Origin: Clostridia bacterium | Lineage (GTDB): Bacteria; Bacillota; Clostridia; Christensenellales; CAG-138 | Direction of reading: 5' to 3' | Assembly (NCBI GenBank): GCA_045603585.1 | Contig: JAZUMK010000042.1 | Coordinates: 10,171 to 74,170 of the forward strand | Length of the DNA: 64,000 nt | In this document: one piece after another, positions 2,310-48,000 of the stretch | Layout: the number at the start of each line of letters is the position of its first letter | Position numbering within the stretch: the first letter of the stretch is position 1 | Position numbers and translations under genes: made by a program | Notes under the pieces: model-generated | Told to the model about the DNA's origin: nothing | Seen by the model: the letters and a program-made list of their open reading frames with translations, nothing else | Databases searched by the model: none

Positions 2310-3545
2310 TTATGCGGGCATATCGTATGCGCCAAGGAACAGGGGCAGCCCTGTTTCGATTTCTACTACGGCGTAGAGGAAGGGGCGGTCGAAATAGATG
2401 GGGATGGGCATCTCCATGGAGGCTTCTTCCGTTGCCGCGGCTTCGGTTACGGCGGCGGCCTCGGTGCCCTCTTCGTCCACGATTATCTTTACCTTCTGAT
2501 AAACTTCGGAAAGATACAGCTTCCCGTTGGGGCCGCTGCCCATGGGGATAAAGTTTGCAAGGTCGGGATCAAAGGCGGGAGAAAGACCAAGGGCGATAAG
2601 GTCCTCCGTCATGGAGCGGTCGTATTCAAAATCAAACTTGGGCAGCCTGAGGTGAGCAAGCTCCTCCTTTGCGGACTGAACAGTGCTCAGCAGCTTTTCC
2701 CCTGTGAGGGAGGAAACGTATTCTGCTAAATCCTCCTCGGGAAGAAGGGCGATAAAGGCCAGCTTTTCATCCTTATAGGGCAGCAGTATGCCGCTTGCGT
2801 CTTCTGTTTTAATATAGTTCAGATAGCCGTCTATGCTCATGAAGTCGGTCTGCATCTCCTCGCCTTCAGCTGTGGTGAAGGTGCTTTGGTGAGTGCGCCA
2901 TCCCTCAAAGGGACGCTGCCATTTTGCGTTCATGTACAGGGCATTCAGCAGCACCAGCATGGTATTTTCGGGATAGGGCTGGTCGTGCAGGGTGGGGATC
3001 AGGCCCTTGGTTTTGCTTTTTACCCAGTTGTTTATGGCCTGCATGTCCGCCTTTGAGGAAAGGTCCGCCATAAATACGTCCGCATCCATATGGGTGACGA
3101 TGGCGCGGAGGTAGTCCTCCTTTATCTGGGAGGAATCGTCACACCATGCGGAGCAGGCAAGGGCAAGCTCTGTGCCGCCGCCGATTTTTTCCAGCGAGGA
3201 CATAAGGGTGCGGCAGATGAGGTTTGTATAGTACATATCCGCCCCCATCACCTGCTCAAAGGCGGCAAGGGTATCGCCGTCCGCGCCGTTCATTGCCATG
3301 GCAAGGCAGATGTATGCGGACAGGGGAGATATGACGGGATTGGGCTCGCCTTCCTGTACAGCGCCGCTTAACAGCTTTGCGCCAAGATCGCCTATTGGGG
3401 AAAAGTCACCTGCGGCCTCTGCGGTAACGTCCAGCGGGGTTATTTTGTCGCCGGTGAGTATGTGGGCATGAATGGTGTTATGGGCGCAGCCTGTAAGCAT
3501 GGCTATGCACAGAATAAGCGCGGCAATGGGGATAATACGCTTCAT
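2310..3545 (-). CDS. serpin-family serine protease inhibitor, lipoprotein-anchored
   Basis: N-terminal lipobox (LTGC). Serpin hinge and reactive-centre-loop region DEEGTEAAAVTEAAA, and C-terminal FDRPFLYAVVE motif. Confidence 0.8.
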   Translation of the reverse strand: MKRIIPIAALILCIAMLTGCAHNTIHAHILTGDKITPLDVTAEAAGDFSPIGDLGAKLLSGAVQEGEPNPVISPLSAYICLAMAMNGADGDTLAAFEQVMGADMYYTNLICRTLMSSLEKIGGGTELALACSAWCDDSSQIKEDYLRAIVTHMDADVFMADLSSKADMQAINNWVKSKTKGLIPTLHDQPYPENTMLVLLNALYMNAKWQRPFEGWRTHQSTFTTAEGEEMQTDFMSIDGYLNYIKTEDASGILLPYKDEKLAFIALLPEEDLAEYVSSLTGEKLLSTVQSAKEELAHLRLPKFDFEYDRSMTEDLIALGLSPAFDPDLANFIPMGSGPNGKLYLSEVYQKVKIIVDEEGTEAAAVTEAAATEEASMEMPIPIYFDRPFLYAVVEIETGLPLFLGAYDMPA

Positions 3546-38467: not shown

Positions 38468-38489
38468 GCTTAAACAAAATCATACGATC

Positions 38490-38524
38490 ATACCCGGCGG
38501 AATACTCTGCCGGGTATTTTTATT
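38490..38524 (+). terminator. intrinsic terminator after pckA
   Basis: Stem ATACCCGGC/GCCGGGTAT followed by a T-run. Confidence 0.75.
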
Positions 38525-38654
38525 CCGTAAAAAATGCGGGAAAAGGCCGTTTTTCATCATATTTGCCTTGACAATGGGCGATACGTTAAGTAGCATTTAC
38601 CATGTTGGCAAAATGCGCGGCAGACTTATTGGCGGATGAAAGGATATAATCACA

Positions 38655-39521
38655 ATGCTTATAAAGGATATACTTAAATCCAGGCCTGTAACCTTCTCCT
38701 GTGAGCTGTTTCCACCAAAAGTGGGAACAGAGCTTCAGAAGGCGGATCTGGTGGTGGAAAAGACCGCTGCTCTCAAGCCTGACTTTATCAGCGTTACCTG
38801 CGGGGCAAACGGCGGAAATACCCAAAACGTGCTTCGCATGGCAAAGCATGCGGGAGAATGCGGCAGCGTCGGTCTTGCCCATCTCACCTGCGTTTCCGCA
38901 AGCCGCGAGGGAATAGCTCAGCGTATCGCCGAAATGAAGCAGAATGGCATATTCAATGTGCTGGCTCTCAGGGGAGACCTTCCCGAGGGTATGGAAAAGC
39001 CTGAGGATGCCTGTTTTCAGCATGCCAATGAGCTGGTGGAGCTGCTCAGGCAGAGCGGCGGATTCTCCGTGGGCGGCGCATGCTATCCCGAGTGTCATCC
39101 TGAAAGCTCATCCCAGGCGGAGGATATAATGTACCTTAAGCGCAAGGTGGAAGCAGGCTGCGATTTCCTTACCACCCAGATGTTCTTCGATAACGATCTG
39201 CTGTACCGCTTCCTCAACAAGCTGGCTGTAGCGGGTGTGGATGTGCCCATAATCGCAGGCATAATGCCCATAACCAGCAGCCGTCAGGTGGCCCGCATAA
39301 CAGGTCTCAGCGGCGCTCTCATGCCGCCCAGATTCCGCAATATGCTGGATCATTACGGCAGCAATGACGCCGCAATGGAGCAGGCGGGCATCGCCTATGC
39401 CTGCGAGCAGATCACAGACCTTGTGGCAAACGGCATAAGGGGCATACATATTTACACCATGAACAAGCCTGACATTGCGGGAAAGATACTGAATAACCTT
39501 TCTTCCGTATTGATGAGGTAG
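38655..39521 (+). CDS. metF: methylenetetrahydrofolate reductase
   Basis: 288 aa. FSCELFPPK... and the TTQMFFD motif are typical of MetF. Confidence 0.9.
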   Translation: MLIKDILKSRPVTFSCELFPPKVGTELQKADLVVEKTAALKPDFISVTCGANGGNTQNVLRMAKHAGECGSVGLAHLTCVSASREGIAQRIAEMKQNGIFNVLALRGDLPEGMEKPEDACFQHANELVELLRQSGGFSVGGACYPECHPESSSQAEDIMYLKRKVEAGCDFLTTQMFFDNDLLYRFLNKLAVAGVDVPIIAGIMPITSSRQVARITGLSGALMPPRFRNMLDHYGSNDAAMEQAGIAYACEQITDLVANGIRGIHIYTMNKPDIAGKILNNLSSVLMR

Positions 39522-39525
39522 CATA

Positions 39526-40161
39526 ATGCGCATACGTCAGGAGGAGGCCCTCAGATACCTTGGGGCGAAAATACCGGACGGGGACAGCGTTGCCCTTATT
39601 GAAGGGGCATGGCAGAAACTGCAGCGCATAGCCTCTCCCCGCCACAGGGTAATAAGGGTCAGCGTGGAAACCGGGGAAAGCATAGTCAAAATAGCCGACT
39701 TTCAGGCGGAGTCTTCCTCCCTTGGCATAAACCTCAGGGGCTGCAGCGAAGCATATCTGCTGGCGGCAACCCTTGGCGCAGAGGTGGACAGGGAGATGAC
39801 CAGACTTGGCGCAATCAATGTGGCGCAGGCCTTTGCATTGCAGGCGGCTGCGGCAAGCGTATTGGAGTGCTGCTGCGATGATGTGTGCGATGAGCTGGCG
39901 GAGGAGCTGAAGGAAGAAGGGCTGTATCTAAGGCCCCGCTTTTCTCCCGGCTACGGCGGCTTTTCAATACAGCATCAGAGCGATATTTTAAGATTGCTGG
40001 AAGGGGGAAGGATAGGCATGGGAGAAACCGCATCCCATATGCTCACCCCGCTTAAATCCGTTACCGCCGTGATAGGCATATCCTCAAAGCCCGGCCTTTG
40101 TCATGACAGCAAGTGCGAACTCTGCGGCAAGACGGACTGCCTGTTCAGAAAGGAACAATAA
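39526..40161 (+). CDS. stand-alone methionine synthase activation (reactivation) domain protein
   Basis: 211 aa of Met_synt_B12-type sequence (RFSPGYGG...). It sits directly upstream of, and is TAATG-coupled to, a metH that lacks this domain. Confidence 0.75.
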   Translation: MRIRQEEALRYLGAKIPDGDSVALIEGAWQKLQRIASPRHRVIRVSVETGESIVKIADFQAESSSLGINLRGCSEAYLLAATLGAEVDREMTRLGAINVAQAFALQAAAASVLECCCDDVCDELAEELKEEGLYLRPRFSPGYGGFSIQHQSDILRLLEGGRIGMGETASHMLTPLKSVTAVIGISSKPGLCHDSKCELCGKTDCLFRKEQ

Positions 40162-42533
40162 TGGCTGAATTTATAGATTTACTGGGCAAAAAACTGCTGT
40201 TTTTCGATGGAGGCATGGGCACCATGCTTCAGAGCGCAGGCCTTAAGCCCGGCGAAATACCGGATATCTGGAACGTTACCAATGGTGATAAGGTCATTGC
40301 CGTTCACAAGGCATACGCTGAGGCAGGCAGCAATATCATAATCACCAATACCTTCGGCTGCAACGAACTTAAGCTTGCAGGCTCCGGCTATACTGCGGCG
40401 GAGATCGCCGCCGCATCCGTACGCAATGCAAAGGCGGCCATAGCAGGCCTTGAGGACAGGTTTGTTGCGCTGGACATAGGCCCCAGCGGCAAGCTGCTAA
40501 AGCCCCTTGGCGATCTGGATTTTGAGGATGCCGTTGAGCTGTTTGCAAAGACTGTACGCGGCGGCGCCAGGGAAAATCCCGATCTTATCCTCATTGAAAC
40601 CATGTCGGATGCATACGAGCTGAAGGCGGCAGTATTGGCGGCAAAGGAAAACTCCGATCTGCCCATAGCTGCCACCGTTACCTTGGACAGCAAGGGCAAG
40701 CTTCTGACCGGCGGCGATGTGGAAAGCGTGTGCGCCTTGCTGGAGGGTCTTGGAGTGGATGCCATAGGTCTCAACTGCGGCCTTGGCCCCAGGGAAATGC
40801 TGCCCTTTTTGAAGCGGCTCAAGGGTGTATGCTCCCTGCCCATGGTACTTCAGCCCAATGCGGGTCTTCCCCGCTCCGAAAAGGGCAGGACGGTATTCGA
40901 CGTTGGCCCCGAGGAATTTGCCGAGCTTATGGAAAGCTGCATTTCAGAGGGCGTATGGCTGGCGGGCGGCTGCTGCGGCACTACCCCTGCCCATATCGGG
41001 GCGCTGGTAAAGCGCTGCGGCAAAATGAATCCTCCCCCTGTGGAGAAGAAGACACTTACCGTGGCCGCATCATACGGTCAGGCTTTGTACTTTGGCAAAG
41101 ATACCAGACTCATCGGCGAGCGCATAAACCCCACCGGCAAGCCCCGCATGAAAAAGGCGCTGCTGGAAGGCGACTACGATATGATACTGCAGGAGGGCAT
41201 ACTTCAGCAGGAGCAGGGCGCCCATGCGCTGGATGTGAATGCAGGCCTGCCGGGTATTGACGAGGCGGCTGTGCTTGCGTCCCTTACAAAGCAGCTTCAG
41301 GGGGTAACAGACCTTCCCCTGCAGCTGGACTCCGCAGACCCCGCCGCCCTTGAAATGGCTCTGAGGATATACAACGGCAAGGCCATAATCAATTCTGTAA
41401 ACGGCAAGCAGAGCAGCATGGATGCTGTATTTCCCCTTGCAAAGAAATACGGCGGCGTGATAGTTGCGCTCACTTTGGATGAAAGCGGCATACCTGAGGA
41501 TGCCGAGGGACGCATGGCCATTGCCCGCAGGATACTGGACAATGCCAAGCAGTACGGCCTTGAACCCCATGATTTTATATTTGATCCCCTTACCCTTACC
41601 GTAAGTGCGGGAGGGGACAACGGCAGGATAACATTGGAATGTGTTCGCAGGCTCCGTGACGAGCTGGGGGTATGTACTTCCCTTGGCGTATCCAATGTGT
41701 CCTTCGGCCTGCCAAACAGGGGTCAGCTCAACAGCGGCTTCCTTACCCTTGCAATGGGGGCAGGCTTGTCTGCCGCAATAGTAAATCCCCATGCTCCCGG
41801 CATGATGGAAGCATATAAGTCTGCCCGCGCCCTTCTGGGCATGGATGAAAACTGTGCCGATTATATAGCGGCATTCAGCGGCGAAGCCGCCGCCGCAGCG
41901 GCTGTGCCCCAGGAGGGAATGTCTCTTTATGATAGCGTATTGAAGGGGCTCAAGAGCGCTGCAATACAGGCCGCAGAGCGGGAGCTTATGGATAAGAGCC
42001 CCCTTGAGGTGATAGATCAGGCCATGGTGCCTGCGCTGAATACCGCAGGAGAAAGGTTTGAAAAGGGAACCATGTTCCTGCCCCAGCTGCTGATGTGCGC
42101 GGAGGCCGCAAAGGGCGCCTTCGGCGTCATCCGCTCCCGCATGGGAGAAGGGGAAGGCATGAGCCGCGGCAAGGTGGTTTTAGCCACCGTTCAGGGCGAT
42201 GTTCACGATATCGGCAAGAATATCGTAAAGGCGCTGCTGGAAAATTACAGGTTCAAGGTAATAGACCTTGGCAAGGATGTGCCTCCCGAGGAGGTTGTAA
42301 AGGCGGCAAAGGAACAGGGCGCAGGCCTTGTGGGGCTTTCTGCACTGATGACCACCACTGTGCCTGCCATGCAGCGCACCATTGAGCTGGTGAAGAAGGA
42401 GCTGCCCGGCTGCAGAGTGATGTGCGGCGGCGCAGTGCTTACCGGGGACTATGCAAGGCAAATAGGCGCAGATTACTACACAAAGGATGCCATGGCCGGC
42501 GTGCGCTGTGCCATGGAGGTATATCCCGAATAG
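40161..42533 (+). CDS. metH: cobalamin-dependent methionine synthase (Hcy-binding, pterin-binding and B12-binding domains)
   Basis: LLFFDGGMGT, GGCCGTTP and a B12-binding DxHxxG-type motif (GDVHDIGKN). The ATG at 40161 is preferred over the track start at 40113. Confidence 0.9.
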   Translation: MAEFIDLLGKKLLFFDGGMGTMLQSAGLKPGEIPDIWNVTNGDKVIAVHKAYAEAGSNIIITNTFGCNELKLAGSGYTAAEIAAASVRNAKAAIAGLEDRFVALDIGPSGKLLKPLGDLDFEDAVELFAKTVRGGARENPDLILIETMSDAYELKAAVLAAKENSDLPIAATVTLDSKGKLLTGGDVESVCALLEGLGVDAIGLNCGLGPREMLPFLKRLKGVCSLPMVLQPNAGLPRSEKGRTVFDVGPEEFAELMESCISEGVWLAGGCCGTTPAHIGALVKRCGKMNPPPVEKKTLTVAASYGQALYFGKDTRLIGERINPTGKPRMKKALLEGDYDMILQEGILQQEQGAHALDVNAGLPGIDEAAVLASLTKQLQGVTDLPLQLDSADPAALEMALRIYNGKAIINSVNGKQSSMDAVFPLAKKYGGVIVALTLDESGIPEDAEGRMAIARRILDNAKQYGLEPHDFIFDPLTLTVSAGGDNGRITLECVRRLRDELGVCTSLGVSNVSFGLPNRGQLNSGFLTLAMGAGLSAAIVNPHAPGMMEAYKSARALLGMDENCADYIAAFSGEAAAAAAVPQEGMSLYDSVLKGLKSAAIQAAERELMDKSPLEVIDQAMVPALNTAGERFEKGTMFLPQLLMCAEAAKGAFGVIRSRMGEGEGMSRGKVVLATVQGDVHDIGKNIVKALLENYRFKVIDLGKDVPPEEVVKAAKEQGAGLVGLSALMTTTVPAMQRTIELVKKELPGCRVMCGGAVLTGDYARQIGADYYTKDAMAGVRCAMEVYPE

Positions 42534-43867: not shown

Positions 43868-43963
43868 AATATGCAGCCCCTTTGCATAAAAATATATAAA
43901 TATATTATACCAGACTTGAACGAACCGGACAATACGCCTCAGCGCGCAATGGGATTTTCGGTG

Positions 43964-43992
43964 TTGACAAGATGCGGTTTTGCTGTTATCAT
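43964..43992 (+). promoter_or_regulatory. promoter of the metY leader
   Basis: TTGACA (43964..43969), 17 nt, TATCAT (43987..43992). Confidence 0.6.
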
Positions 43993-44046
43993 CTTCTGCA
44001 ATGGGTCGTTTGACCCGGCAATCTTTCAAAGGAGGTATAGTTTCAC

Positions 44047-44109
44047 ATGATGAATATGTTTGCTATGATGATGCGTTATACCGCCTTTGATAATGCTCGC
44101 CGGGGCTAA
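44047..44109 (+). CDS. candidate Met-rich leader peptide (20 aa: MMNMFAMMMRYTAFDNARRG)
   Basis: Six ATG codons fall within the first nine codons. GGAGG lies 11 nt upstream. The ORF sits between a promoter and an intrinsic terminator, directly upstream of metY. Confidence 0.55.
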   Translation: MMNMFAMMMRYTAFDNARRG

Positions 44110-44132
44110 CTTCTCCAGCAAGAGCGAAATTC

Positions 44133-44170
44133 AAGGCGGTTATTGGCGTTGCACCAATAGCCGCTTTTTT
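44133..44170 (+). terminator. attenuator terminator upstream of metY
   Basis: Stem AAGGCGGTTATTGG (44133..44146) / CCAATAGCCGCTT (44154..), followed by TTTTTT at 44165..44170. It is located inside the 5' leader. Confidence 0.75.
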
Positions 44171-44213
44171 ATTGCAAATTAATCAATTTACACCATATCA
44201 GGAGGAAAGAACA

Positions 44214-45494
44214 ATGGCAGAACAGACCATCGGCACCAAATGCGTACAGGGCGGCTACACCCCCGGCAACGGCGAGCCCCGCCAGATACCCATAATCCAG
44301 AGCACCACCTTCAAATACCAAAGCAGCGCCGAGATGGGCAAGCTCTTTGTCCTTGCGGCCAGCGGATACTTCTACACCCGCCTGCAGAATCCCACCAACG
44401 ATGCGGTTGCCGCAAAGATCGCAGCCCTTGAGGGCGGCACTGCCGCAATGCTCACCTCCTCCGGTCAGGCGGCAAATTTCTACGCGGTGTTCAATATTGC
44501 ATCCTGCGGCGATCACGTTGTAAGCTCCTCCAGCATTTACGGCGGCAGCTTCAATCTTTTCTCCGTAACCATGAAGCGCATGGGTATCGAGTTTACCTTT
44601 GTTTCTCCCGATTGCACCGATGAGGAGCTGAATGCGGCATTCCGCCCCAATACCAAGGCGGTATTCGGCGAGACCATCGCAAATCCTGCACTCACCGTAC
44701 TGGATATTGAGCGATTTGCAAAGGCTGCCCATGACCACGGCGTACCCCTCATCATTGACAACACCTTTGCCACCCCCATAAACTGCCGTCCCTTTGAATG
44801 GGGTGCGGATATCGTGACACACTCCACCACCAAGTACATGGACGGCCACGGTGCAGGCGTTGGCGGCTGCATAGTGGACTCCGGCAGGTTTGACTGGACA
44901 AAGTACCCCAAAAAGTTCCCCGGCCTCTGTACTCCGGATGCCAGCTATCACGGCGTAACCTATACAGAGCGTTTCGGCCTTGAGGGAGCATACATCACCA
45001 AGGCCACCGCCCAGCTGATGAGGGATTTCGGCTCCACACAGTCTCCCCAGAATGCATTTATACTGAACCTTGGCCTTGAAAGCCTCCATGTGAGGGTAAA
45101 GCGCCATTGCGAAAACGCACAGGCGGTTGCAGAGTATCTTAAGAGCAATCCCAAGGTGGAATGGGTGCAGTACTGCGGCCTTGAAGGGGATAAGTACTAC
45201 GAGCTGGGCAAAAAGTATCTGCCCAACGGCTCCTGCGGTGTTGTGAGCTTCGGCGTAAAGGGCGGCCGTGAGGCTGCCGAAAGGTTCATGGGCAGGCTCA
45301 AGATAGCCGCCATAGAGACCCACGTTGCAGATGCCCGCACCTGCTGCCTGCATCCTGCCAGCTCCACCCACCGCCAGATGACGGATGCAGAGCTGAAAGC
45401 AGCCGGCGTTTCCCCTGACCTTGTGCGCTATTCCTGCGGTCTGGAAGATGCGGCAGACCTTATTGCCGATATAGAGCAGGCCCTTAACGACTAA
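44214..45494 (+). CDS. metY: O-acetylhomoserine aminocarboxypropyltransferase / sulfhydrylase
   Basis: 426 aa of the Cys/Met-metabolism PLP family (STTKYMDGHG lysine motif). The ATG at 44214 has an AGGAGG RBS. Confidence 0.9.
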   Translation: MAEQTIGTKCVQGGYTPGNGEPRQIPIIQSTTFKYQSSAEMGKLFVLAASGYFYTRLQNPTNDAVAAKIAALEGGTAAMLTSSGQAANFYAVFNIASCGDHVVSSSSIYGGSFNLFSVTMKRMGIEFTFVSPDCTDEELNAAFRPNTKAVFGETIANPALTVLDIERFAKAAHDHGVPLIIDNTFATPINCRPFEWGADIVTHSTTKYMDGHGAGVGGCIVDSGRFDWTKYPKKFPGLCTPDASYHGVTYTERFGLEGAYITKATAQLMRDFGSTQSPQNAFILNLGLESLHVRVKRHCENAQAVAEYLKSNPKVEWVQYCGLEGDKYYELGKKYLPNGSCGVVSFGVKGGREAAERFMGRLKIAAIETHVADARTCCLHPASSTHRQMTDAELKAAGVSPDLVRYSCGLEDAADLIADIEQALND

Positions 45495-45732
45495 AAGTGT
45501 CGCAAAAGTCCTGTTGGGACTTTTGCGAGAGAACAGATTTTGCCTAAAACGCCAAGGCGTTGACCGGCGGCAAAATCTGCAAAGTGCGAAAACCTTGCGG
45601 TTTTCATCCGTTCTGACGCACATGTCGTCAGAGCCGGATTGAAAATCAAGGGGTGCGCCCCTTGATAATCCCCGAGAAACACTTATTCGATAAAGTGTAA
45701 TCATCTAAAACTAACTAACGGAGGACGTAACC

Positions 45733-46659
45733 GTGCCTATAAAAATACCCAATCAGCTTCCCGCAACTCAGGTGCTCACCGACGAAAACATCTTCGTCAT
45801 GACCGAAACCAGAGCAATGACGCAGGATATCCGCCCCCTGCAGATACTTGTGCTCAACCTGATGCCCACCAAGATAGAGACCGAAACTCAGCTGGCACGC
45901 CTGCTGGGAAACACCCCTCTTCAGGTGGAGCTGGAGCTGATGCAGACACAGAGCTACGTTCCCCAGAATACCGCCGCCGATCACATGATCAAGTTCTATA
46001 CCACCTTTGACAAGGTGAAGGACCGCTACTTTGACGGCATGGTGATAACAGGCGCTCCTGTGGAAAAGCTGGATTTTCAGGATGTGCAGTATTGGGATGA
46101 GCTTTGCGAAATAATGGAATGGAGCAAAACCCATGTGCACAGCACCTTCCACATCTGCTGGGCGGCTCAGGCGGCATTGTATTATCATTACGGCATACCC
46201 AAGGTGGAGCTGCCCGAAAAGCTTTCCGGCGTATATCTCCATAAGGTGGACCGCCGCAGCTCCATGCTCCTCCGCGGCTTTGACGAGGCCTTCTGGGTAC
46301 CCCATTCCCGCAACACCACCGTACGCCTTGAGGATGTGAAGGCTTGCCCCAAGCTGAAGGTACTGTCCACCTCTCCACGGGCCGGCGTATATGCCCTTGC
46401 CACCGAGGGCGGCCGCCAGATATTCATCACCGGCCATTCCGAATACGACAGGGATACCCTCAAGAAGGAATATCTTCGCGACAAAAATGCGGGGCTTGAT
46501 CCCAAGGTGCCGGAAAACTACTTCCCCAATGATGACGATACAAAGGACCCTCTGGTAAAGTGGCGGGGCCATGCAAGCCTGCTGTATCAGAACTGGCTCA
46601 ATTATTACGTATATCAGGCCACGCCCTACAATATCCTCACCATTCAGCCCATATCCTGA
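45733..46659 (+). CDS. metA: homoserine O-acyltransferase MetA (acetyl/succinyl type)
   Basis: [11 protein letters not shown]...[10 protein letters not shown] and the conserved MetA core. GTG start with a GGAGGA RBS. Confidence 0.9.
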
Positions 46660-47157: not shown

Positions 47158-48000
47158 ATGCAACCACTTGTATTTCAAAGCGATTTCGGCCTTGGGGACG
47201 GTGCGGTATGCGCCATGTACGGCGTTGCGGAAAGCGTTGACCCCGCCCTCAGGCTGTTCGACCTTACCCACGACATAGAGCCATACAACATCTGGGAGGC
47301 AAGCTATCGCCTCATACAGACCATCAGCTACTGGCCTGCGGGGACTGTTTTCGTATCCGTGGTTGATCCCGGCGTGGGCTCAACCCGCCGCAGCGTAGCT
47401 GCCCTCACCAAGGGTGGTCAGGTGATAATCACCCCGGATAACGGCACCCTTACCCATACCTTCAGGCTGGTAGGCATAGAAAGCGTACGGGAGATAGACG
47501 AATCCGTAAACCGCCTGCCCCATACCGGCGAAGCCTATACCTTCCATGGCAGGGATATATACGCCTACACCGGCGCACGCCTTGCCTCCGGCAAGATCGA
47601 TTTTTCCGGCATCGGCCCTGAGGTTCCTGTGGATTCTCTGGTTCGCCTGCCTGTGGTGGATCCTGTGCTGGAGGGTGGGCAGATAACCGGCACCATAGAC
47701 GTATTGGATGTGCGCTTTGGCAGCATATGGACAAACATCCCCCACAGCATGCTTAAGGAGCTGGGCATCAAATACGGCGACAGGGTGCAGGTGACCATCC
47801 GCAACGACACCCGAAGCCTCTACCGCAATACCATGACCTTTGCCCATTCCTTTGCGGAGGTATTCGTAGGCGAGCCGCTTTCCTATATCAATTCCCTTGA
47901 TTATGTGGCGGTTGCCATAAATCAGGGTTCCTTTGCCCGGGCCTACAATATCGGCACAGGCAACAGCTGGCACATAACCATAGCCCCCTCACCTTATTAG
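47158..48000 (+). CDS. SAM hydroxide adenosyltransferase (DUF62; chlorinase/fluorinase-like SAM hydrolase)
   Basis: FQSDFGLGDG... and VVDPGVGSTRR motifs are characteristic of the DUF62 family. Confidence 0.8.
   Translation: MQPLVFQSDFGLGDGAVCAMYGVAESVDPALRLFDLTHDIEPYNIWEASYRLIQTISYWPAGTVFVSVVDPGVGSTRRSVAALTKGGQVIITPDNGTLTHTFRLVGIESVREIDESVNRLPHTGEAYTFHGRDIYAYTGARLASGKIDFSGIGPEVPVDSLVRLPVVDPVLEGGQITGTIDVLDVRFGSIWTNIPHSMLKELGIKYGDRVQVTIRNDTRSLYRNTMTFAHSFAEVFVGEPLSYINSLDYVAVAINQGSFARAYNIGTGNSWHITIAPSPY

Follow-up and report, generated by a model that had tools for sequence, protein, structure and literature searches.

Organization of the metY-metA locus

The 64,000-nucleotide stretch of DNA analyzed here (the window; contig JAZUMK010000042.1 of a Clostridia bacterium) carries a metY gene that is followed by metA and preceded by a leader whose short open reading frame (ORF) is crowded with methionine codons, and it is this leader, a candidate attenuator of methionine synthesis, that concerns us. 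Its features are collected in Table 1. The six ATG codons of the leader ORF start at 44047, 44050, 44056, 44065, 44068, and 44071; the intrinsic terminator downstream consists of a 14-bp stem (44133..44146 / 44154..44167) followed by T6, with a hairpin energy of about -19 kcal/mol; and the metY start, 3′ of the terminator, is preceded by its own Shine-Dalgarno (SD) sequence. The promoter would drive a leader-metY transcript starting near 44000, of which we propose that metY is the first regulated gene; metA is probably co-transcribed with the upstream metY.

Table 1. Features of the metY-metA locus, in window coordinates
Feature	Position	Strand	Remarks
Sigma-70-type promoter	43964..43992	+	TTGACA-17-TATCAT, extended TG; 11/12 matches
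Segment A (region 1), TCAAAGGAGGTAT	44026..44038	+	complementary to B at 12/13 positions
Leader Shine-Dalgarno GGAGG	44031..44035	+	within segment A
Leader ORF, 20 codons, MMNMFAMMMRYTAFDNARRG	44047..44109	+	stop TAA 44107..44109
ATG ATG ATG, Met-Met-Met run	44065..44073	+	kept in 19/19 aligned leaders
Segment B (region 2), ATACCGCCTTTGA	44078..44090	+	core ACCGCCTT at 44080..44087; proposed antiterminator 5′ strand
Hairpin H	44095..44125	+	closed by GCUC/GAGC; leader stop TAA in loop
Segment C (region 3), AAGGCGGT core	44131..44146	+	terminator 5′ arm and proposed antiterminator 3′ strand
Segment D (region 4), terminator 3′ arm	44154..44167	+	followed by T6 tract 44168..44173
metY, O-acetylhomoserine sulfhydrylase / aminocarboxypropyltransferase	44214..45494	+	Pfam Cys_Met_Meta_PP PF01053, E = 2.7e-119
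metA, homoserine O-acyltransferase, HTS family	45733..46659	+	Pfam PF04204, E = 2.9e-139

Four segments of the leader, A, B, C, and D, could form mutually exclusive pairings, with hairpin H lying between B and C. The reverse complement of B, TCAAAGGCGGTAT, agrees with A at 12 of 13 positions, and direct reading of the sequence pairs B with C (44131..44143) through the 8-bp core ACCGCCUU:AAGGCGGU. A first-pass annotation of the window had described the promoter, a GGAGG followed by a 20-codon ORF with Met at six of its first nine codons, a strong terminator with T6 ahead of metY, and the complementarity of B both to A (12/13) and to C; all of these were confirmed, each at the coordinates first given, with the promoter scoring 11/12, the terminator stem spanning 14 bp, and B:C running through the 8-bp core.

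Six ATGs within nine codons occur only once in all six frames of the window, where the next best stretch has four, and the fold of the leader RNA beats 200 of 200 dinucleotide shuffles (z = -3.3); together these two results place the arrangement beyond chance. A:B and the terminator are present in both the minimum free energy and the centroid folds, and H by itself folds at -10.9 kcal/mol. A promoter-like TTCACA-16-TATGAT at 44042..44069, created by the GCT ATG ATG codons, is not conserved in relatives and was for that reason rejected as an explanation of the ATG run.

Related leaders in other genomes

A protein scan of species-representative genomes with MetY yielded 80 loci at 77-86% identity. 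Two of them (L001 and L002, both among the three best MetY matches) carry a promoter, SD sequence, Met-rich ORF, and terminator in the same order as the window, with leader peptides MKQNMLSSMMMPSAAFAAS and MKMYMMMNVMMMPCTVFGLFPYPVC, and a third (L034) has a divergent variant. Most of the other orthologs read at this level of identity have either a short upstream region with a plain promoter or a T-box, and from the small number of carriers we conclude that the element is restricted to a clade and is not a general feature of metY.

Closer relatives present another picture. The first-pass annotation had asked whether a Met-rich small ORF and a terminator are kept in related Clostridia, and all eight MetY homologs at 86-98% identity, which were fetched by exact protein sequence with no DNA pattern imposed, carry both as parts of the element. 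The leader peptides at these eight loci are MMNMFAMMMRNTAFDKARRV, MMNMFAMMMHKTAFDIAPGIKS, MRIRMLNNSMMMRCTVFGLLEKR, MNSIYASMMMPGSAFGMFL, MYIYISMMMPVSAFGAFL, MLKRTYNGFYMMMPSTVFSRF, MIRTNACMMMPGSAFGTLL, and MNRTFNFAMMMQRTAFGELLSQK.

We also scanned metagenomes with a DNA pattern (ATGATGATG, 5-9 nt, CCGYCTT, 25-55 nt, AAGGCGG), which found 120 stretches, 88 of them short ORFs of this family encoding 12 distinct peptides. Pattern-found leaders precede metY in L087, L094, L099, L100, L123, L168, L173, and L183, and one lies directly upstream of metA (L164); of the 17 loci L201-L217, 12 have metY paired with metA (the downstream gene in L203 has no Pfam family on record). In all, we count about 20 distinct leader peptides. 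They share one layout, consisting of an SD sequence, a short ORF with Met-Met-Met (MMM), two spacer codons, B, a stop-codon hairpin, and an intrinsic terminator, and in relatives a TTGACA...TAnnAT pair stands at the matching relative position. According to their records, the carriers are genomes and contigs of uncultured Oscillospiraceae, Clostridia, or "Firmicutes" that were sampled from the gut of ruminants, camels, and humans. A collection of 15 billion proteins contains none of the four leader peptides (in five sequence versions) that were looked up in it, and a regular-expression search of 1.4 Mb of locus DNA found no second copy of the leader in any locus.

Two of these leaders deserve separate description. 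In L034 the Met-rich leader MMMLLMCNSKNMLSPCLRMPQRAKA, with its ORF at -200..-122 relative to the metY start and the leader sited in the region 57..111 nt upstream of metY, has segments of unrelated sequence (A GGAGAGGAGAAA, B UUUCUCCCUGUCUCC, terminator GCAGGG/CCCUGC); it still permits all three alternative pairings, with Met codons placed differently relative to B, and could be either a very diverged member of the family or an independent invention. The commonest metagenome leader is MNIGMVMMMCKTVFGLF, which accounts for 79 of the 88 family matches and comes from human gut (L090, with the leader ORF starting at 3543 of the oriented strand, L092, L150, L157, and about 75 more contigs). Leaders of the MNSIYASMMM-, MKMKPMMM-, and MNIGMVMMM- types are frequent in gut samples. 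The MNIGMVMMMCKTVFGLF leader precedes a decayed metA in which only residues 6-58 and 131-185 are detectable, in different frames, and in 24 of its 79 copies a GGT to GAT change in B breaks one B:C pair; these sequences may represent a methionine auxotroph that still keeps its leader.

Conservation of the alternative pairings

Nineteen distinct leaders were aligned (alignment A2), 11 of them obtained through MetY homology without any pattern and 8 through the pattern. The three pairings named in the first-pass annotation recur in these relatives, B:C and C:D with compensatory changes. For C:D, 91% of cells over the 19 leaders are paired, compared with 26-68% when the partner is slid; five pairs have changed on both sides, and no shuffle attains the covariation score. 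For B:C, 82% of cells are paired over the 12 pairs drawn, compared with 39-57% in slid versions; pairing is almost complete at the ten inner positions, the compensations are AU to GC (L001, L099), AU to UA (L213), and GC to AU (L214), and the covariation score was attained by 0 of 500 shuffles. Unconstrained RNAalifold, run on the same alignment, itself selects B:C as the consensus helix.

A:B had to be treated differently. The MAFFT alignment of the A region is unreliable, so we tested A:B by duplex energy rather than by column counts; the duplex averages -16.8 kcal/mol over the 19 leaders (mean z = -2.8 against shuffles) and reaches -17.9 kcal/mol in the window (z = -5.6). Since B resembles the anti-SD and any SD would therefore pair with it to some extent, A was further compared with 33 real SD regions from window genes. 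None of the 33 pairs with the window B as well as A does, and in 14 of the 19 leaders none or only one of them matches A:B, so that in most lineages A:B is better than a generic SD region would provide.

The resemblance to ribosomal sequences extends further. B (ACCGCCUUU, 44080..44088) resembles the anti-Shine-Dalgarno end of 16S rRNA, A and C (44133..44140) both resemble SD sequences, and lineages in which B reads CCGUC have a leader SD of GGCGG or GGACGG in place of GGAGG, a correspondence that suggests a trade-off between ribosome binding and A:B pairing.

Hairpin H, which the first-pass annotation did not describe, is an additional part of the element: a hairpin of unrelated sequence lies between B and C in 19/19 leaders (-5 to -12 kcal/mol, mean z = -1.9), and in all 19 the leader stop codon falls inside it.

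These comparisons bear on the simplest alternative, that the ORF is a small functional protein gene with its own terminator, or a chance arrangement with no role for metY. Small ORFs followed by terminators are indeed common, and none of the leader peptides looked up is annotated. Such a gene would not be expected to lie every time 3′ of a promoter and 5′ of metY or metA, with the terminator followed by no further promoter, to encode a peptide that varies outside MMM and the part encoded by B, or to have an antiterminator overlapping a terminator arm with compensatory changes; nor does it fit with six Met in nine codons being unique in 64 kb. We regard it as extremely improbable.

Reading frame, Met run, and footprint of selection

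What the 19 leaders hold in common is the ATG ATG ATG run, CCGYCUU in B, AAGGCGG in C, and CCG in D. Every leader has an SD-like purine tract 6-11 nt 5′ of the ATG that opens an ORF of 16-25 codons; the ORF includes MMM in frame and ends before C. Its stop codon is TGA in 17 of the 19, TAA in the window, and TAG in L002. In 19/19 the CCG of B follows the first ATG of the run at a distance of 16 nt, leaving exactly two spacer codons, even though the scan pattern allowed this distance a 5-nt range; B itself starts 15-16 nt downstream of the run's first Met codon in every leader. Additional ATGs between the start codon and MMM number 16 in frame compared with 2 and 0 in the other two frames, indicating that the codon and not just the trinucleotide is enriched. 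The enriched codon also matches the pathway of the genes downstream, metY and metA, both of methionine synthesis. The invariant signal is the Met-Met-Met run rather than the overall number of Met codons.

The footprint of selection is sharpest among relatives whose MetY is 96-98% identical. Identical columns there number 12/13 in segment A, 27/27 in codons 1-9, 11/11 in B, 16/16 in C, and 14/14 in D, compared with 2/6 in the spacer codons and 18/38 in hairpin H, which is nonetheless retained as a hairpin. Over the whole family the peptide is variable before MMM, at the two residues after MMM, and in its C-terminal tail. The [T/S/A]-[A/V]-F-[G/D] stretch coincides with segment B, and there residues change while base pairs are kept.

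This last observation bears on the choice between the attenuator and a nascent-peptide mechanism, in which MMMxx(T/S/A)(A/V)F would be a TnaC-like arrest peptide sensing free methionine or S-adenosylmethionine (SAM). The motif MMM-x-x-[TSA]-[AV]-F-[GD] is present in all leaders and 17 of 19 use UGA as the stop, two points in favor of such a mechanism; yet the conserved tail of the motif is exactly segment B, its amino acids change (T/S/A, A/V) while pairing to C persists, which argues that selection acts on the RNA, and the two residues after MMM vary freely. Arrest at abundant methionine would moreover switch biosynthesis on, the wrong sign of response, and we consider an arrest peptide highly improbable.

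A protein-mediated attenuator of the TRAP or PyrR kind, binding either the AUGAUGAUG repeat or segment B, is likewise very improbable. RNA-binding attenuation proteins are frequent in Firmicutes and AUGAUGAUG is an invariant short tandem repeat; but its three triplets are far below the 9-11 of TRAP, the repeat is always in frame with an SD-preceded ATG, and the extra ATGs are scattered but in frame. Nor does any conserved regulator gene adjoin the locus: the upstream neighbors vary by lineage (CN_hydrolase, Hydrolase_2, Fumerase_C, DegV, Abhydrolase).

Ribosome position and the choice of structure

The first-pass annotation had left open which stall position would favor antitermination, and the geometry of the leader supplies an answer. 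We modeled a stalled ribosome as covering the RNA to 12 nt past the first base of the A-site codon, a footprint known from E. coli toeprinting and ribosome profiling. A ribosome whose A site holds the run's first Met codon, or one of the Met codons before it, would leave B exposed and favor antitermination; one further along would cover B or sit between B and C.

Folding energies agree with this geometry. When only the RNA downstream of the ribosome edge was folded, the antiterminator B:H:C, with the A site on Met 1 and RNA made as far as C, averaged -27.3 kcal/mol (-23 to -32), compared with -21.6 kcal/mol (-16 to -28) for the terminator hairpin; with the A site on Met 3, the antiterminator dropped to -16.7 kcal/mol (-11 to -22), and the terminator was the best fold in 10 of 10 leaders folded with D. 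The point of switching thus coincides exactly with the Met run, and this accounts for the constancy of the two-codon spacer. Folding of the whole leader with the ribosome as a constraint was uninformative, as A:B formed all the same on either side of the masked RNA.

Known RNA families and T-boxes at metY

No SAM riboswitch or T-box had been seen in the leader by eye, and the Rfam scans bear this out. At gathering thresholds, Rfam 15 finds only three tRNAs in the whole window, with no T-box and no SAM riboswitch; at E<=10, the region 43880..44260 gives only meaningless miRNA and snoRNA matches with E>1. Specifically, i) SAM riboswitches (SAM-I/S-box, SAM-II, SAM-III, SAM-IV, SAM-V, SAM-VI, SAM/SAH) are found neither in the leader at E<=10 nor, at gathering threshold, in the window or in 94 related loci (79 species-representative loci and 15 leader-carrying loci, L034 among the latter); ii) the T-box model RF00230 has no match in the window leader, and specifier loop and T-box motif are absent; iii) the Rfam leader-peptide families (Trp_leader, His_leader, Leu_leader, Thr_leader, and others) have no match in 43880..44260 at E<=10 and none in the 15 member loci at gathering threshold; and iv) those 15 loci have no Rfam match of any kind at that threshold. 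These scans rule out a SAM riboswitch or a T-box as the identity of the leader.

The negative result has power, since the same Rfam library finds T-boxes directly upstream of orthologous metY genes in four other species: L017 (2216..2455, with specifier AUG), L021 (2172..2419), L023 (2231..2456), and L068 (2192..2435). As read from these sequences, metY appears to be a gene at which different sensors have been swapped in, and the comparison supports the view that the window leader would be the functional equivalent of the Met T-box at orthologous metY, with tRNA-Met charging as the shared signal.

There remains the alternative that the leader contains an undescribed SAM or methionine riboswitch, or a degenerate T-box, and that the short ORF is incidental. 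S-boxes and T-boxes are the normal controllers of methionine genes in Firmicutes, T-boxes do stand at four orthologous metY loci, and the leader RNA is significantly structured (z = -3.3). Apart from the negative scans and the missing T-box landmarks, what speaks against a riboswitch is the pattern of conservation: from A to B the leaders differ in length (5-10 codons) and, except for AUGAUGAUG, in sequence, leaving no conserved ligand pocket, and the features that are conserved are those of a reading frame (SD, ATG, in-frame MMM and ATGs, stop before C). A sensor of this kind is very unlikely here.

A model for control of metY-metA

All of the computable defining features of trp/his/leu-type attenuators are present in the leader, and the comparative sequence evidence strongly supports reading it as one. 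We conclude that the leader is probably a ribosome-mediated transcription attenuator through which the supply of charged elongator tRNA-Met would set expression of metY-metA; the four alternatives considered above are all unlikely.

In the mechanism we propose, with no ribosome on the leader A:B and C:D would form and transcription would end before metY. When Met-tRNA is scarce, a translating ribosome would stall with the run's first Met codon, or a Met codon before it, in the A site. The front of the ribosome, some 12 nt past that codon, would stop just short of B, and its bulk would hold A and B apart, so that B could pair with C as C emerges. The resulting long B:H:C stem would be more stable than the terminator, and RNA polymerase would read through into metY-metA. 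When Met-tRNA is plentiful, the ribosome would pass B and reach the stop codon within H, melting H and covering or separating B and C; C, freed from B, would pair with D, and transcription would terminate. A would thus serve as both anti-antiterminator and SD sequestrator, and H would cap the B:C antiterminator. By analogy with the 1:2 pause hairpin of trp, H may also make RNA polymerase pause until the ribosome catches up, and by hiding the leader SD, A:B would limit translation to the first co-transcriptional ribosome. What the sequences show are the elements themselves, their conservation, the compensatory changes, the fixed spacing, and the computed energies; that the ORF is translated, that the ribosome stalls on it and is coupled to RNA polymerase, and which way expression responds are inferred.

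We wish to stress that several observations weigh against this interpretation. Some concern the sample: 77 of the 80 metY orthologs at 77-86% identity lack the canonical element, so that its distribution is patchy; all carriers are uncultured metagenome-assembled genomes or metagenome contigs; and 8 of the 19 aligned leaders came from a pattern that itself fixes MMM, CCGYCTT, and AAGGCGG. Others concern the pairings: 6 of the 12 B:C pairs never vary and, as an invariant half of the core, are uninformative either way, and A:B is unremarkable compared with a generic SD in L002, L099, L001, L164, and L213. The +12 nt ribosome footprint is borrowed from E. coli and not from these organisms. Methionine starvation should also lower initiation, fMet-tRNA being charged by the same synthetase, and would favor the terminating state without a ribosome. 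Finally, leader-peptide attenuation works only if a ribosome follows RNA polymerase closely. The polymerase of Bacillus subtilis runs ahead of the translating ribosomes (Johnson et al. 2020, reviewed in PMC7858274).

Relation to known attenuators

The nearest mechanistic likeness is to the E. coli trp leader (Rfam Trp_leader) and the proteobacterial his, leu, thr, pheA, and ilv leaders. Shared with these are an SD-preceded short ORF with tandem codons for the end-product amino acid; 1:2, 2:3, and 3:4 pairings with an intrinsic terminator before the first biosynthetic gene; a region 2 some 15-20 nt after the first regulatory codon, beyond the edge of the stalled ribosome; and a stop codon placed so that a finishing ribosome blocks 2:3. 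Unlike in the trp-type leaders, the regulatory codon here is AUG, the start codon as well; the leader's own SD region serves as region 1; the loop separating regions 1 and 2 holds the regulatory codons; an additional stop-codon hairpin caps the antiterminator; and the hosts are uncultured Clostridia (Oscillospiraceae and relatives) rather than Proteobacteria. As no Rfam leader model matches, the leader falls outside every described family.

Leader peptides are, to our knowledge, rare in Firmicutes. The leu and his leaders of Lactococcus lactis are leader-peptide attenuators of this phylum. A histidine leader before hisS/hisZ paralogs was presented as new when it was described in bacilli (Naville and Gautheret 2010, PMC2965389). 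The present leader has in common with the bacillar His leader and the L. lactis leaders that attenuation would depend on the ribosome in a Gram-positive host, and with the Firmicutes His and Leu leaders that it replaces a T-box found at the same gene in relatives; it differs from them in amino acid, genes, and sequence families, and none of those leaders senses methionine.

Two other devices reach the same end by different means. The Met T-box (RF00230) has the same target, metY, the same signal, tRNA-Met charging, and the same terminator/antiterminator output, but its sensor is a structured RNA that recognizes uncharged tRNA by direct binding, independently of translation. The S-box or SAM-I riboswitch (RF00162), the usual controller of metY and metA in Firmicutes, shares the terminator/antiterminator choice and differs in having a conserved aptamer that senses SAM.

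The first-pass annotation had held that leader-peptide attenuators are known mainly for amino acids other than methionine. This stands, save for one earlier proposal for methionine, the sole one we found: a "metL" leader peptide annotated upstream of metNIQ in Streptomyces lividans TK24 (PMC8079986). The metL ORF is leaderless and encodes 29 residues with three scattered Met including the initiator (MSTTSDRTPATEATTTPGARCMCRRMCAF); according to its authors, no Rho-independent terminator of typical structure is present, and neither alternative pairings nor comparative support is presented (PMC8079986). The metL annotation is accordingly weak, and it concerns a transporter operon in an actinobacterium, unlike the leader described here, which precedes metY/metA in Clostridia.

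Polycysteine leaderless short ORFs in mycobacteria tune the downstream operon to the Cys supply (bioRxiv 10.1101/834739). They too are upstream short ORFs rich in codons for a sulfur amino acid, and they differ in that the codons are Cys, the mRNAs leaderless, and the hosts Actinobacteria. The polycysteine ORFs are not known to use a four-segment terminator/antiterminator switch. A full-text literature search, in which most subscription journals lie outside coverage, found no description of the present leader. It is likely to be the first well-supported methionine leader-peptide attenuator, representing a family found in abundant, uncultured gut Clostridia at metY/metA, genes that in relatives are preceded by a Met T-box or by no known leader.

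Implications

Methionine is missing, as far as we know, from the amino acids sensed by textbook leader-peptide attenuation; a plausible cause is that the sensing codon doubles as the start codon. A family with an invariant MMM and a fixed two-codon spacer would fill this gap and would offer a clean system for asking how an elongating ribosome reads starvation for the initiator amino acid; if the interpretation is true, AUG can act as a starvation-sensing codon even though initiation needs the same amino acid. It would also bear on transcription-translation coupling in Clostridia, since the ribosome would have to be within a few tens of nucleotides of RNA polymerase: these Firmicutes would keep the first ribosome close to the polymerase, unlike the runaway transcription of B. 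subtilis. Control of methionine synthesis would be accounted for in those Oscillospiraceae-like bacteria, widespread in the gut, in which these genes have neither S-box nor T-box. At a more practical level, the motif could be used for genome annotation and for predicting auxotrophy, and about 20 unannotated small ORFs are added to the catalog.

Other features of the window

The window has another methionine operon, at 38655..42533, comprising metF, a gene for a B12-dependent methionine synthase activation domain, and metH. Its upstream region (38468..38654) has a promoter-like TTGACA-17-TAGCAT and a 5′ untranslated region of about 55 nt; no Met-rich ORF, terminator, or Rfam match was found there, indicating that metF-metH is not under the same control as metY.

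The spacer between metY and metA (45495..45732) is about 239 nt long in the window and in its closest relatives (L201, L202, L204, and L205), and 14-30 nt in other lineages. It contains several hairpins (45500..45528 and 45648..45662) and an inverted repeat (CAGATTTTGCC / GGCAAAATCTG), and may have arisen by insertion of a repeat element or provide a further site of control for metA. Just downstream of metA, at 47158..48000, lies a gene resembling SAM hydroxide adenosyltransferase (SAM_HAT_N, SAM_HAT_C), which is followed by genes for an ECF-type transporter.

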